Part shown: positions 3,654-34,327 of the stretch, piece by piece
How positions within the stretch are numbered: position 1 is the first letter of the stretch
Layout of the letters: every line of letters starts with the position of its first letter
The notes under the pieces: model-generated
Seen by the model: only the letters and a program-made list of their open reading frames with translations
What the model was told of the DNA's origin: nothing
The model's database searches: none
Translations under genes and position numbers: made by a program
NCBI GenBank assembly: GCA_032249235.1
Contig: JAVVGF010000001.1
Coordinates: forward strand, 80,064 to 144,063
DNA from: Thermoproteota archaeon
Lineage (GTDB): Archaea > Thermoproteota > Thermoprotei > Gearchaeales > Gearchaeaceae
Length of the DNA stretch: 64,000 nucleotides
Direction: 5' to 3'

Positions 3654-4639
3654 TGAATATTTTGGGCATAGAGAGCACTGCGCATACAATTGGTGCTTCA
3701 GTAGTCAATGAAGAAGGAATAATATCCAATGTAAATTCTGTTTACATCCCTCCTAAAGGAAAAGGAATACATCCTAGAGAAGCTGCTATACATCATAGCG
3801 AAGAAGGTCCAAGAGTAATAAAGGAAGCTTTAGAAAAAGCAGGCCTGAAGATAAATGATATCGATGCGATAGCGATTAGCTTAGGTCCAGGTTTAGGCCC
3901 TTGCTTAAGAACAGGAGCAACTTTAGCTCGTTTTTTATCTCTGAAATTTAATAAAGATCTAGTACCGGTAAATCATGCAATTGCCCATATAGAAATAGCT
4001 AGATATTTATGCAAAAAAGAAGATCCTTTAGTTGTTTATATTGCAGGCGGAAATACAATAATTTCTACATTTGTAGAAGGAAGATATAGAATATTCGGAG
4101 AGACTCAAGATATTGCACTAGGTAATGCTATTGATTATTTCGGAAGGATTATAGGTGTAGAATATCCAGAGCTAATAAATGTTGAAAAGCTAGCTATGAA
4201 AGGAGAGAAAATTCTTGAGCTTCCATTACCTGTTAAAGGGCAAGATGTATCATATTCTGGCTTGTTGACTGCTGCTTTGAAATTGATAAAAGAAGGATAC
4301 AAAATTGAAGATGTTTGTTTAAGCTTTATTGAACATGCTTATGCTGCACTTTGTGAATCTGTTGAAAGAGCACTAGCATATACTGGCAAGAAATCTATTG
4401 TTTTAACAGGAGGAACGGCAAGATCCTTGATATTGAAAGAAAAATTAAAACTTGTAGCGAGTGAACATAATGCAGATTTTTCAGTCGTTCCTTCAGAATA
4501 TGCAGGAGATAATGGTGCAATGATTGCTTATACTGGTTATTTAGCATATAAATCAGGTGTTAAAATTAAAGTTGAAGAAAGTTTTGTGAAACCATTTTGG
4601 AGGATAGATGAAGTCGATATACCTTGGCGTTCAAGCTAG
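3653..4639 (+). CDS. kae1: KEOPS subunit Kae1 (tRNA t6A37 threonylcarbamoyltransferase)
   Basis: '[18 protein letters not shown]' is the classic Kae1/TsaD N-terminus. The ORF also has 'HAIAHIE' and a 'GGTARS' ASKHA-fold motif. Confidence 0.9.
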   Translation: MNILGIESTAHTIGASVVNEEGIISNVNSVYIPPKGKGIHPREAAIHHSEEGPRVIKEALEKAGLKINDIDAIAISLGPGLGPCLRTGATLARFLSLKFNKDLVPVNHAIAHIEIARYLCKKEDPLVVYIAGGNTIISTFVEGRYRIFGETQDIALGNAIDYFGRIIGVEYPELINVEKLAMKGEKILELPLPVKGQDVSYSGLLTAALKLIKEGYKIEDVCLSFIEHAYAALCESVERALAYTGKKSIVLTGGTARSLILKEKLKLVASEHNADFSVVPSEYAGDNGAMIAYTGYLAYKSGVKIKVEESFVKPFWRIDEVDIPWRSS

Positions 4640-5280
4640 ATTATTTAATAAAGAAAGGAGCTGAAGCTGAAATTTGGAAAGGTAAATGGTTTAGTATCAA
4701 TTCTGTTTATAAGATTAGAAAAAGCAAGCCTTGGAGGCATCCTTTACTTGATAAATTAATTCTAGAGAAAAGAACGATTAAAGAAGCGAGGATAATGTAT
4801 CATGCTTTTGAAAATAATATAGATGTTCCCTTCATCTATGACGTAAACATATCGAAGAATACAATAGTTATGGAATTTGTCGAGGGAATAACTTTGAAAG
4901 AACTGATGGAAGCGAAGGATTCAAGAATCTTTATTTTATGTGAAAAGTTAGGAAAGCTTGTTGCAAATCTTCATGAGGCATCGATAGTTCATGGTGATTT
5001 AACACCTTCGAATGTCATATTAAGGAATGAAGGTGGTCTTTGCATACTAGATTTTGGCCTTGCAAATTTCAGCAATAGGATAGAAGATATGGGAGTAGAT
5101 TTGCATTTATTTCTTCGGTCTTTAGAAAGTAGCTTCAGTTCTTTAACTCATGAATGTTTTCAAAGTTTCATAAAAGGATATAGTCATTTTAAGCATTATA
5201 ATGAAGTTTTAGAAAAAGTCAAAGAAATTAGAAGAAGAGGTAGGTATGTTTTGGAAAGGAGAATTTCAAGAAAGATTTGA
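4624..5280 (+). CDS. bud32: KEOPS subunit Bud32 (atypical small kinase)
   Basis: The 218-aa ORF has 'IVHGDLTPSNVIL' and 'ILDFGLA' kinase motifs. It overlaps the kae1 stop, so the two are unfused adjacent genes. Confidence 0.8.
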   Translation: MAFKLDYLIKKGAEAEIWKGKWFSINSVYKIRKSKPWRHPLLDKLILEKRTIKEARIMYHAFENNIDVPFIYDVNISKNTIVMEFVEGITLKELMEAKDSRIFILCEKLGKLVANLHEASIVHGDLTPSNVILRNEGGLCILDFGLANFSNRIEDMGVDLHLFLRSLESSFSSLTHECFQSFIKGYSHFKHYNEVLEKVKEIRRRGRYVLERRISRKI

Positions 5281-9743: not shown

Positions 9744-10700
9744 ATGTTCTCTTCTTTTATCCTTATGTTCAATGTACTAATCTGCGATCCTATTTCAATA
9801 AATTGTGTTGAAAAATTGAAAGAAGAAAAATTCAACGTCATCTTCAAGCCTAATATTACAAGGGAATTGTTAATTGAAGAAGTTAAAGATAAAGATGCCT
9901 TAGTTGTTAGAGGAAGAACAAAGGTTGATGCTACCATCATGGATAATGCAACAAAATTGAAAGTTATAGTTAGAGCTGGTGTAGGTTTAGATAATATAGA
10001 TCTTCAATATGCTCAAATGAAGGGCATTGAAGTTTTCAACACACCAGAGGCAGTCACTAACGCTGTTGCCGAATTAACAATTTGCTTTATTATATCATTA
10101 TTACGAAATGTTCATAAAGGAAATTCTTCTCTTAAAAAAGGAGAATGGATTAAAAATCTTCTCATAGGCAGCGAGTTAAAGAGTAAAACTGTAGGGATTC
10201 TAGGTTTTGGTAGAATAGGTATGGAAGTAGCTAAGAAATTAAAAGCTTTTGATTGTAGAATTTTATGTTACAGTAGGACAGATAAAAGTGAAATTGCAAA
10301 GAAGATAGGCGTCGATTTCACTAATGATTTAGACTATTTATTAAGGGAGTCTGATATACTAACCGTTCACTTAACTCTTAATAATGAAACTTATAAGTTC
10401 TTGAATAGAGAGAGATTGGCCAAGATGAAAAAAGGAGCATACTTGATCAACACTTCAAGAGGCGCAATTATTGATGAAGAAGCCTTATTAGAAGTATTAG
10501 AGAATGGGCATTTAGCAGGCGCAGCCTTAGATGTATTCGAATATGAACCTCCTCAAACAGAAATTGAAAAAAGATTATTGAGATTAGAAAATGTTTTAGT
10601 TACCCCACATATAGGTGCTCAAACTAAAGAAGCGATGGAAAAAGAAGGTGAAGAGGTTGCTCGAATATTAATAGATTACTTTAAGAAGATTAAAATATGA
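9744..10700 (+). CDS. D-isomer-specific 2-hydroxyacid dehydrogenase (PGDH/GyaR-like)
   Basis: 'GILGFGRIGMEVAKKL' is the NAD Rossmann motif. 'RGAIIDEEAL' and 'LDVFEYEP' are catalytic-domain motifs. The real start is probably the internal 'MFNVLICDP'. Confidence 0.8.
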   Translation: MFSSFILMFNVLICDPISINCVEKLKEEKFNVIFKPNITRELLIEEVKDKDALVVRGRTKVDATIMDNATKLKVIVRAGVGLDNIDLQYAQMKGIEVFNTPEAVTNAVAELTICFIISLLRNVHKGNSSLKKGEWIKNLLIGSELKSKTVGILGFGRIGMEVAKKLKAFDCRILCYSRTDKSEIAKKIGVDFTNDLDYLLRESDILTVHLTLNNETYKFLNRERLAKMKKGAYLINTSRGAIIDEEALLEVLENGHLAGAALDVFEYEPPQTEIEKRLLRLENVLVTPHIGAQTKEAMEKEGEEVARILIDYFKKIKI

Positions 10701-10721
10701 GAAAATTGAGATGATTAGTTA

Positions 10722-11168
10722 ATGGGTCTAGCAAAATACAGCAAACTGATAAAGAAGGTCTATGAAAATGAATTTAAGTTGAGATTAGCTGAATGGAGGA
10801 AACAACCTACTGTAGTTAAACTCGAGCATCCTACTATAATTTGGAAAGCAAGGATGTTGGGATATAAAGCAAAGCAAGGGATTATAGTAGTAAGGGTGCG
10901 TGTAAGGAAAGGAAAATTTTCAAGACAAAGACCTAAAACTGGAAGGAGACCTAAAAGGATGGGGACGACGAGATTAACTATAAAGAAAAGTCTAAGATTG
11001 ATTGCAGAAGAAAAAGCTCAAAGAAAGTTTCCTAATATGGAAGTATTGAACTCTTATTATGTAGCTGAAGATGGAATGTATAAATGGTATGAAGTTATTT
11101 TAGTCGATCCATATAGCACGAGTATAAAAAAGGATAAGAGTTTGAATTGGATATATAGAGGAGAATAA
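10722..11168 (+). CDS. rpl15e: 50S ribosomal protein L15e, N-terminal ~3/4 only (split gene)
   Basis: 'GYKAKQGIIVVRVRVRKGKFSRQRPK' and 'VLNSYYVAEDGMYKWYEVILVDP' are eL15 signatures. The ORF stops at 'NWIYRGE*', about 40 residues short of a normal eL15. Confidence 0.8.
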   Translation: MGLAKYSKLIKKVYENEFKLRLAEWRKQPTVVKLEHPTIIWKARMLGYKAKQGIIVVRVRVRKGKFSRQRPKTGRRPKRMGTTRLTIKKSLRLIAEEKAQRKFPNMEVLNSYYVAEDGMYKWYEVILVDPYSTSIKKDKSLNWIYRGE

Positions 11169-11593
11169 TGGCGCAAGTACCTGAAATAGATGCAGAAAAG
11201 CTTGAGTTTGAGGAATTAAGGAAGAAGCTTGTAGCATATGTAAAAACTAAAGAAGGTAAGAAAAGGAAAGCTAGAGGTTTTAGCAGAGATGAATTAAAAG
11301 CTGTTAATCTAACTCCTAAGCAGGCATTGAAGCTTGGAATACCAGTAGATATAAGAAGAAAAACTTCTTATGAAGAAAACATTAGCATTTTGAAAAGCAT
11401 TGATTTAAAAAGGCTTGAGCAGCTTGCTAAGAAATATTTGAAGAAGAAAAAGAAGAAAGTAAAAGGTAAGCATAGAAAGAGAGTATTTAGAGGCTTGACT
11501 TCTGCTGGTAAGAAAATGCGAGGTCTTAGAAAAGATAAACTAATCAATACACACAAGTATAAGTGGAAGAAAAAGAGAAAATGGGAAAAGTAG
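11168..11593 (+). CDS. ribosomal protein L13e module fused to the C-terminal tail of L15e
   Basis: The ORF starts in a TAATG overlap with the preceding ORF. Residues ~30-75, 'RGFSRDELKAVNLTPKQALKLGIPVDIRRKT', match the eL13 core. The last ~35 aa, 'GKHRKRVFRGLTSAGKKMRGL', are the eL15 C-terminal signature. Confidence 0.65.
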   Translation: MAQVPEIDAEKLEFEELRKKLVAYVKTKEGKKRKARGFSRDELKAVNLTPKQALKLGIPVDIRRKTSYEENISILKSIDLKRLEQLAKKYLKKKKKKVKGKHRKRVFRGLTSAGKKMRGLRKDKLINTHKYKWKKKRKWEK

Positions 11594-11790
11594 CTAAGGG
11601 AATTAAATGTAGCGTTATAGGTTGTAATAAGGAAGCTGAGAAATCTCTTTCTTCACAAAGAGCTTCATTAGCTACTTCTTTGAAGTTTGCTTTGAATTCA
11701 AGGCAAGTATACTTATGTAAAGAGCATTATAAAATCTGGAAGAAAGAAACGAAAGAAATTAGGGAAATTGAAAGAGCTGGATGGGAATAG
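11581..11790 (+). CDS. small zinc-binding protein, unknown function
   Basis: The 69-aa ORF from the ATG at 11581 has 'CSVIGC...LCKEHY', a possible C4-C...C2-H ligand set. It lies between the ribosomal genes and trm11. Confidence 0.3.
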   Translation: MGKVAKGIKCSVIGCNKEAEKSLSSQRASLATSLKFALNSRQVYLCKEHYKIWKKETKEIREIERAGWE

Positions 11791-34225: not shown

Positions 34226-34327
34226 GCGGGAGTCATCTAGCCTGGCTATGATGCCGGACTCATAATGCAAAGCCGGGGCAGGCATGCGTGGAATCCGGTG
34301 TCCCGGGTTCAAATCCCGGCTCCCGCA
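34226..34327 (+). tRNA. tRNA-Met or tRNA-Ile2 (anticodon CAU) with ~28-nt intron after position 37
   Basis: The acceptor GCGGGAG pairs with CUCCCGC and the T-arm is CCGGG-UUCAAAU-CCCGG. The anticodon arm CCGGA-CUCAUA[intron]A-UCCGG gives anticodon CAU. G1-C72 and the absence of a GGG/CCC anticodon stem argue against an initiator tRNA. Confidence 0.8.

Follow-up and report, generated by a model that had tools for sequence, protein, structure and literature searches.

Probable fission of the ribosomal protein gene for eL15 and transfer of its C-terminal tail to eL13 in Thermoproteota archaea

Introduction

The architecture of core ribosomal proteins is about as conserved as that of any protein known. 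In eL15, a globular part is followed by a basic C-terminal segment that is itself conserved. We examined two overlapping genes in which these two parts of eL15 (gene rpl15e) are encoded separately, the C-terminal segment, or tail, being joined to the ribosomal protein eL13. The pair lies in a 64,000-nucleotide stretch from a Thermoproteota archaeon of the Gearchaeales (GenBank assembly GCA_032249235.1, contig JAVVGF010000001.1, positions 80,064 to 144,063 of the forward strand; G+C content 31.5%), which is called the window here and is numbered from its first letter. The upstream open reading frame is termed ORF1 and the downstream one ORF2.

Among the closest described systems are split archaeal genes, such as those for the RpoA/RpoB subunits (PMC3082918) and the split genes of Nanoarchaeum equitans (PMC3655853). 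As in the window, one ancestral polypeptide is produced there from two genes whose products reassemble in a complex. In those cases the halves are free-standing, whereas the smaller piece in the window is fused to a neighboring subunit of the same complex. The window case is a segment transfer between two proteins and not a simple fission.

Canonical eL15 (PF00827, NF003269), including the chains of Pyrococcus (4V4N AM), T. kodakarensis (6SKF BP) and S. acidocaldarius (8HKU) and the proteins of Desulfurococcales (P0027-P0098), carries both parts on one chain of 190-226 amino acids (aa). Its ~150 N-terminal residues are the orthologue of ORF1 and its residues ~150-190 that of the ORF2 tail; in the window these parts are found on two polypeptides, with the tail covalently attached to eL13. 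The short archaeal eL13 (NF008914/PRK12277; for example Bathyarchaeia loci L032 and L047, of type A below) shares the core RGFS..EL...LGIPVD.RR with ORF2, and its gene in Bathyarchaeia occupies the same place, directly 3' of rpl15e. This short protein measures 72-108 aa and finishes in a non-conserved Lys/Glu-rich end, whereas ORF2 runs on into the eL15 tail.

Neither a split eL15 nor a fused eL13 was described in the full-text literature searched, which included the Pyrobaculum calidifontis ribosome preprint, Yutin et al. 2012, the COG survey of ribosomal proteins, and ribosomal-protein network and review papers, and did not cover subscription-only papers. The initial annotation of the window, made from its sequence, was also unaware of a prior description, and the arrangement is apparently undescribed before. 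In the source databases the fused protein goes under "ribosomal protein L13e" or "hypothetical protein". Fission and fusion of genes whose products belong to one complex is a known principle, and the window case is neither categorically new nor unique to this genome. We regard the split eL15 with its eL13-borne tail as a real and functional segment transfer with a probability of roughly 0.82.

Results

Domain content of the gene pair

ORF1 (rpl15e-N, 148 aa; 10722..11168, + strand) was assigned from the ORF listing and profile matches as the N-terminal globular part of eL15. It matched Pfam PF00827 (Ribosomal_L15e) with an E-value of 2e-56 across profile positions 15-151 of 191 (191.1 bits; cut-off 27), and it scored 212.4 bits against NCBIfam NF003269, the eL15 equivalog model, above the cut-off of 178. 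ORF1 aligned with residues 12-149 of solved eL15 chains and was 58-67% identical to Thermoproteota eL15. Its C-terminus reads "...NWIYRGE*", with the stop placed at the seam between domain and tail, and it is without the RGLTSAGKK tail. ORF1 thereby departs from the one-polypeptide architecture of eL15, as it holds the N-terminal domain only and profile positions 152-188 are found on ORF2.

ORF2 (141 aa; 11168..11593, + strand) was found, by the same means, to comprise an eL13 core, a linker and the eL15 tail, and it contains "RGFSRDELKAVNL...LGIPVDIRRKT" and "GKHRKRVFRGLTSAGKKMRGL". The core matched Pfam PF01294 (Ribosomal_L13e) over aa 30-107 (E 2.3e-9; 37.8 bits, gathering score 24.9) and NF008914/PRK12277 (L13e) over aa 26-78, corresponding to model positions 22-74 of 83 (E 1.2e-16). 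The latter score of 60.1 bits is below the equivalog cut-off of 96; the core is homologous, and the protein departs in architecture from the short L13e behind the model. Our own eL13-core profile gave 106.7 bits, and the core also aligned with the eL13 chain 9e6q_AH and with eukaryotic eL13 chains. The core residues G37, F38, S39, E42, A53, G57, I58, P59, V60, D61, R63, R64 and N71 were invariant or nearly so in alignment A1.

The remainder of ORF2 matched eL15. Residues 99-135 aligned with positions 152-188 of Pfam Ribosomal_L15e at E 3.9e-6, a marginal pass at 27.1 bits against a cut-off of 27, and the tail matched positions 152-191 of NF003269. An eL15 profile of 220 positions, which we built from full-length Desulfurococcales eL15, placed ORF1 at positions 12-153 and the ORF2 tail at positions 153-193 (E 2e-15). 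Because ORF1 ends and the ORF2 tail begins at profile position 153, the two pieces are exactly complementary. Over about 25-38 residues, the ORF2 tail shared 70-88% identity with its counterparts in full-length Desulfurococcales eL15. The initial annotation had read ORF1 as the N-terminal three-quarters of eL15 and ORF2 as an eL13 core followed by the eL15 C-terminus, and it had proposed alignment to eL15 and eL13 profiles; these alignments confirmed both assignments and the domain boundaries, with the pieces meeting at one profile position. Its view that eL15 is split and that the tail sits on an eL13 polypeptide holds, whereas the insertion of eL13 into rpl15e that it also envisaged is not established.

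Layout of the gene pair

The two ORFs overlap, as previously annotated, in a TAATG at 11166..11170 (+), where the TAA of ORF1 shares bases with the ATG of ORF2. A TAATG-type stop/start overlap is the usual arrangement of translationally coupled genes. Two putative Shine-Dalgarno-like (SD-like) motifs were read from the sequence, namely GAGATGA at 10708..10714 (+), 7 nt 5' of the ORF1 start codon, and GAGGAG at 11158..11163 (+), which lies inside the end of ORF1 and 4 nt 5' of the ORF2 start codon. Abutting or overlapping genes for eL15 and the eL13-tail protein were also found in the relatives L001-L004, L081 and L083, of type B below. In L085, a close relative, an ORF of 98 aa without a Pfam match (4509-4805) separates the truncated eL15 gene from the eL13-tail gene, so that the overlap is not obligatory.

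Within ORF2, aa 1-25 (11168..11242, +) form an acidic, helical and lineage-specific N-terminal extension of eL13, which according to alignment A1 is kept only in the closest relatives (P0002, P0004-P0007). The eL13 core with the pattern RGFS..EL......A..LGIPVD.RR...EN spans aa 26-86 (11243..11425, +), as delimited by PF01294, NF008914 and our own profile. It is followed by a Lys-rich linker, KKYLKKKKKKVK, at aa 87-98 (11426..11461, +; from alignments), whose length and sequence differ by lineage, with ~12 aa in the window and ~25-30 aa in others. The eL15 tail, GKHRKRVFRGLTSAGKKMRGLRKDKLINTHKYKWKKKRK, occupies aa 99-141 and, with the stop codon, 11462..11593 (+); it is of the crenarchaeal type and was delimited with PF00827, NF003269 and our own profile.

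Replication, conservation and selection

The identical ORF2 protein was encoded on 22 contigs, which came from at least 6 independent samples (JGI or SRA), and a 148-aa eL15 gene always lay 5' of it. The neighborhood on these contigs reads 2-hydroxyacid dehydrogenase, eL15 N-terminal part, eL13-tail, a small ORF, a THUMP methyltransferase and RNase Z. Homologues of the fused protein formed a graded series from 100% down to ~45% identity, and most carried both Pfam domains in precomputed annotation. The comparison of related genomes across the junction, which had been proposed with the initial annotation, thus returned a conserved pair of truncated eL15 and eL13-tail genes.

The proportions of nonsynonymous (pN) and synonymous (pS) differences were calculated between the window genes and their orthologues in six related loci. 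In all comparisons the synonymous sites were saturated (pS ~0.6-1.0), and pN was 0.09-0.3 for ORF1, ORF2 and the tail taken separately. ORF1 gave pN 0.09-0.16 and pS 0.71-0.85 against orthologues in its lineage, and pN 0.27 and pS 0.96 against the more distant L081; the tail segment alone gave pN 0.18-0.27 and pS 0.57-0.99 within the lineage. Purifying selection acts on ORF1 and ORF2, and on the tail segment considered by itself. Pseudogenization of the pair was also considered, and it was rejected on replication, conservation and purifying selection.

Distribution across archaea

A scan with one genome per GTDB species, using an alignment of fused proteins as the query, returned 80 loci. These and separately fetched relatives were sorted into four types with our own eL13-core and eL15 profiles. 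Type A (44 loci, mostly Bathyarchaeia) combines a full-length eL15 with a short eL13 that has no tail; the eL13 gene lies directly 3' of eL15 in most cases, and in five loci eL15 is encoded on the opposite strand or at a distance of 0.6-1.7 kb. Type B (17 loci, 9 without near-duplicates) has a truncated eL15 followed directly by eL13 with the tail, and it includes the window, metagenome-assembled genomes (MAGs) labeled Crenarchaeota, Thermoproteota or Thermoprotei, one Bathyarchaeia MAG, L081 and the single-cell genome SCGC AAA471-B05 "YNPFFA". Type C (24 loci from Bathyarchaeia, Hecatellales and a Thermoproteales MAG) has eL13 with the tail and no eL15 within 4-10 kb. Type D (11 loci from Desulfurococcales, Sulfolobales and Nezhaarchaeales) has a full-length eL15 and no eL13 nearby.

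Across the 61 loci with adjacent genes, the tail was on eL15 in 44 and on eL13 in 17, and in none was it on both or on neither. Wherever eL15 is full length, eL13 was without the tail, as seen in the 44 type A loci, the 83-position NCBIfam L13e model and eukaryotic eL13 chains. Conversely, the partner eL15 of a tailed eL13 was without it in ORF1 (the sole eL15 in the window), in all 17 type B loci and in chain 9e6q_AM. No second copy of eL15, eL13 or the tail was found in the window. A scan of an independent set of metagenome contigs with the tail only returned 80 loci, including 64 full-length eL15, 9 eL13 with the tail and 4 eL15 fragments truncated at contig ends; a tail carrier beyond eL15 and eL13 was not seen among them. 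A representative search with ORF1 returned mostly fragments and eukaryotic mis-models and was useful only for P0210, P0219, P0235, P0242 and P0244.

The gene order around eL15 is conserved as eL15-(eL13)-PF01877-RNase P p30-Pop5. Most Bathyarchaeia have full-length eL15 and then short eL13 5' of PF01877, RNase P p30 and Pop5, and the same three genes lie 3' of eL15 in Desulfurococcales. In Bathyarchaeia of type C, the eL13-tail gene is the third gene of a conserved uL13-uS9 operon (L092 9164-10333; L094 9121-10306), which means that the fused gene has moved into another ribosomal-protein operon. The 10-kb flanks examined on contigs of 574 kb and 759 kb contained uL13-uS9-[eL13+tail] and no eL15. 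Stand-alone genes for tail-less eL15 were encountered in L100, beside RNase P p30/Rpp14, and elsewhere in L101, and the eL15 of a Korarchaeota MAG is also truncated (P0359). The initial annotation had raised the prospect that RGLTSAGKK is a normal part of eL13 in this lineage. This is so, here and in several other lineages, because those lineages share the same rearrangement, and the split is not refuted by it. Nor is the arrangement a private oddity of this genome, as it is present in the P. calidifontis ribosome and in many MAGs under the annotation "L13e".

The solved ribosome of Pyrobaculum calidifontis

The P. calidifontis ribosome is available as PDB 9E6Q, 9E71 and 9E7F (bioRxiv 10.1101/2024.11.12.623245). 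The best PDB match to ORF2 was chain AH of these entries, deposited as "eL13" with 157 aa, and it was the only archaeal eL13 chain found in the PDB search. ORF2 aa 31-138 aligned with residues 20-128 of 9e6q_AH at E 3e-18, so that core and tail are both included in the alignment. With the eL15 tail alone as query, chain AH was again the best PDB match (E 1.5e-14, residues 90-142); the other chains among the matches listed were eL15, each matched through its own tail, and the P. calidifontis eL15 chain, AM, was absent among the 60 matches listed.

Chain AM, deposited as eL15 ("L15e") with 189 aa, has no RGLTSAGK motif and reads "...GREVPRRRLARRLRERQRKLIEHLKKTLLPKLKGTST" past the seam. Its residues 130-188, recovered with the C-terminus of P0210 as query, are EVILIDCNQPTIQRDPLYSGICGREVPRRRLARRLRERQRKLIEHLKKTLLPKLKGTST, and its C-terminal extension, ...RRLRERQRKLIEHLKKTLLPKL, is unrelated to the canonical tail. 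The presence of AH and AM in a solved ribosome means that both proteins are physically present as separate chains, with the canonical tail on eL13. P. calidifontis therefore has the same division of labor as the window, with an eL13 chain that carries the RGLTSAG...THNYKFKKK tail and an eL15 chain that does not, and it differs in that its eL15 has gained an unrelated C-terminal extension, whereas ORF1 simply stops. The Thermoproteales-like fused genes related to that of P. calidifontis (L006, L011) have no eL15 within ±4 kb. The text of the preprint contains no occurrence of eL13, eL15, L13e, L15e or "fused".

It was also noted that chain AM (~150-189) and the metagenomic P0210 ("Crenarchaeota archaeon"; ~150-193; with locus L101 8001-8582) have a novel extension in common, ...RRLRxxQxxxIExLKKTLLPKL... 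(E 6e-11). The extension of chain AM and P0210 appears to be a replacement module for the canonical tail.

Tail-less eL15 in Thaumarchaeota

A profile of the truncated eL15 forms retrieved hundreds of eL15 proteins of 150-170 aa. Some of these are named Nitrosopumilus sp. or Thaumarchaeota, and one cluster has 967 members and is represented on a 1.8-Mb contig. The thaumarchaeal protein ends ...ILADPSHPRVSKDKELRKRVIPA, a few residues past the seam, and examples without RGLTSAGKK are P0392, P0405, P0408, P0438, P0456 and P0502. In Thaumarchaeota/Nitrososphaeria, eL15 (P0392 and P0438, "Nitrosopumilus sp.") is cut at essentially the same point as ORF1, at 150-154 aa and just past the conserved D..L motif. 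The eL13-tail gene adjoins eL15 in the window, whereas neither the tail nor eL13 was found within ±5 kb of the thaumarchaeal eL15 in four loci (L096-L099). The literature reports eL13 to be absent from most Thaumarchaeota.

In the window lineage, the gene directly 5' of truncated eL15 encodes a 2-hydroxyacid dehydrogenase (9744..10700 in the window, +), and such a gene is also located 3-4 kb 5' of the thaumarchaeal truncated eL15 (L096 1-682; L098 1509-2441). Its presence near both truncated eL15 loci may be a trace of shared locus ancestry.

Discussion

How the split pair would work

The explanation that we favor is a functional fission of the eL15 gene with fusion of the detached tail to the ribosomal neighbor eL13. 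The initial annotation had described eL13 and eL15 as neighbors on the large subunit, which agrees with the contact between their extensions in eukaryotic large subunits (PMC7804294). ORF1 encodes the globular N-terminal part of eL15 only, and ORF2 encodes eL13, a Lys-rich linker and then the basic, conserved tail of eL15 (RVFRGLTSAGKKMRGL...THKYKWKKK). Co-transcription of the pair is probable, and so is translational coupling by way of the TAATG overlap and the SD-like GAGGAG. Coupled translation would give equal amounts of the two proteins, and L085 and the type C genomes indicate that such coupling is not obligatory. The products would be two separate polypeptides that both assemble into the 50S subunit. 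By homology the ORF1 product would be a component of the large subunit, as the tail-less 9e6q_AM is in the P. calidifontis 50S.

Tethered to eL13 by the variable linker, the tail would still fulfill its normal structural function within the 23S rRNA core. Most likely, the eL13-borne tail occupies the usual rRNA-embedded position of the eL15 tail, because each adjacent gene pair has one tail, the homology is in register, and the P. calidifontis chains show the same division.

Alternative explanations

An assembly error or sequencing frameshift, which the initial annotation had named as its alternative, would mean that the organism has one continuous eL15 gene and a separate eL13 gene. Metagenome-derived sequences contain frameshifts as a general prior, and ORF1 and ORF2 are in different frames. 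However, a frameshift is unable to put the tail behind eL13, the arrangement recurs on the 22 contigs from at least 6 independent samples and assemblers, it is kept in the divergent relatives L001-L004, L024, L081 and L083, and the two matching chain types are found in the solved ribosome of a cultured organism. The many independent assemblies, the conservation to ~45% identity and the purifying selection on both ORFs and the tail exclude an artefact for practical purposes. Scarcely more credible is programmed -1 frameshifting or stop-codon bypass at TAATG, through which one eL15N-eL13-tail polypeptide would be made with eL13 as a domain inserted in eL15. The ORF2 frame is indeed the -1 frame of ORF1 and the ORFs overlap, but a TAG at 11156-11158 means that the ORF2 frame opens at 11159, only 3 codons 5' of its ATG, and no X_XXY_YYZ slippery heptamer occurs in 11158-11165. 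ORF2 also has its own ATG and SD-like motif, an additional ORF intervenes in L085, many genomes have an unlinked fused gene behind uL13-uS9, and the P. calidifontis eL13-tail and eL15 are two distinct chains in the deposited structure, with 157 and 189 aa.

Another explanation is that eL15 has lost its tail and is partly degenerate, while the basic C-terminus of eL13 is unrelated or convergent and binds elsewhere, so that rRNA or some other protein would fill the canonical tail pocket, if anything does. Ribosomes in which eL15 bears no tail do exist, as Thaumarchaeota have tail-less eL15 with no nearby eL13 or tail, and the eL15 of P. calidifontis and P0210 has gained a new and different C-terminal extension. 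Against this, the ORF2 tail matches the eL15 profiles specifically and in register at positions 152-193, and its identity to Desulfurococcales eL15 tails is far beyond compositional similarity. The occurrence of one tail per adjacent pair in the 61 loci is what substitution predicts, unlike independent evolution of the two proteins. We consider such a loss unlikely.

Origin of the rearrangement

Full-length eL15 is present in Euryarchaeota, eukaryotes, Desulfurococcales and most Bathyarchaeia. We infer that it is the ancestral state because it is found in archaea without eL13 (Pyrococcus, Thermococcus, Haloarcula) and in eukaryotes that have both proteins. The eL15-eL13 order common to Bathyarchaeia and the window lineage suggests that the rearrangement started from two neighboring genes. 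If the tail-coding segment and eL13 were duplicated in tandem, an in-frame eL13::tail junction would have been created, after which the redundant eL15 tail and the second eL13 copy would have been lost. Tandem duplication with reciprocal loss would be the most economical route to the split pair.

Several points weigh against functional fission with tail transfer, or against this route to it. The organism of the window is uncultured, and its gene products are known from sequence alone; similarly, the chain AH tail would lie in the canonical eL15-tail pocket on the basis of homology between chain sequences. For type C, the partner eL15 is known only from P. calidifontis in the PDB, which answers for Thermoproteales, and the stand-alone tail-less eL15 genes of L100 and L101 are not assignable to type C genomes. 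No surviving intermediate for duplication and loss was found, and no locus had both tails. The fused tails are all of the crenarchaeal type (SRGL[KR]G / THKYKWKKK), including those in Bathyarchaeia, where the tail of full-length eL15 is Pyrococcus-like (KGRGAEKVRPS); an in-situ origin there is doubtful, and transfer or one older origin is possible. On the grouping of fused and split forms, neighbor-joining (NJ) trees of these short proteins also disagree. In the tree of the eL15 N-domain, the window lineage falls into a single clade together with L081 and P0210, and in that of the eL13 core it stands apart from the other fused forms, both trees being poorly resolved with 65-140 residues. A single old origin, several origins, or transfer of the 0.9-kb gene pair are all possible.

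Concerning the origin only, eL13 may instead have been inserted directly into rpl15e at the seam, or the pair may have arisen once and spread as a ~0.9-kb cassette by horizontal replacement. The derived crenarchaeal-type features common to all fused tails, even in Bathyarchaeia, speak for this, as do a seam at the same place, within a few residues, across the fused-gene lineages and the single clade on the eL15 N-domain tree. The separate position of the window lineage on the eL13-core tree speaks against it, and so does the eL15 tree, where the truncated proteins of Thaumarchaeota and Korarchaeota fall elsewhere; both trees are weak, and no intermediate was seen for any route. We treat insertion or cassette spread as a serious possibility without adopting it, and we retain duplication and loss as the working route. 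The genes 3' of the pair (the small Zn-finger-like ORF, the THUMP methyltransferase and RNase Z) are common only to the type B relatives and are uninformative on the origin.

Implications

Under the preferred reading of fission and tail transfer, a conserved rRNA-embedded segment would have swapped its carrier to a neighboring ribosomal protein and become fixed in several major archaeal lineages. This would be direct evidence that extensions of ribosomal proteins can act as transferable modules, for which the place in the ribosome counts and not the chain. The structural result is already contained in PDB 9E6Q, where it has gone unremarked. For annotation, it is relevant that an eL15 of ~150 aa in such lineages can look truncated, and that the fused protein is filed as plain "L13e" and scores below the NCBIfam cut-off. 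Concatenated ribosomal-protein alignments that include eL15 will mix non-orthologous C-termini.

As a rare genomic change, the split also provides a discrete character with which to address the deep phylogeny of Thermoproteota (TACK), which is contested. We propose, tentatively and with more doubt than confidence, that eL15 fission with movement of the rRNA-threading tail to eL13 is a rare change that characterizes, or has passed horizontally between members of, a large and taxonomically scattered part of Thermoproteota, including the YNPFFA-like lineage of the window, Thermoproteales with Pyrobaculum, Hecatellales, part of Bathyarchaeia and some Korarchaeota. For Thaumarchaeota, with their tail-less eL15 and reported lack of eL13, the universally conserved tail may be lost or carried on an unrecognized protein. 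If this were true, one of the most abundant archaeal groups would have a structurally altered large-subunit core.

Other observations

A small ORF at 11581..11790 (+; 69-75 aa, with a listed GTG start at 11563) overlaps the end of ORF2 and has a C-x4-C ... C-x2-H pattern. It had no significant Pfam or NCBIfam match, and the type B loci of the lineage, as well as L081, keep it directly 3' of the eL13-tail gene. From its sequence pattern, the product could be an unrecognized Zn-binding protein that is ribosome-associated or binds nucleic acid.

Archaeal eL15/eL13 contigs labeled bacterial were encountered in NCBI as "Geobacterales bacterium" and "Candidatus Krumholzibacteriaceae bacterium" (P0005, L038), which looks like MAG contamination or mis-binning. 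Finally, a tRNA match at 34226..34327 (+) spans 102 nt, compared with 73-85 nt for the other four in the window, and is probably an intron-containing archaeal tRNA.

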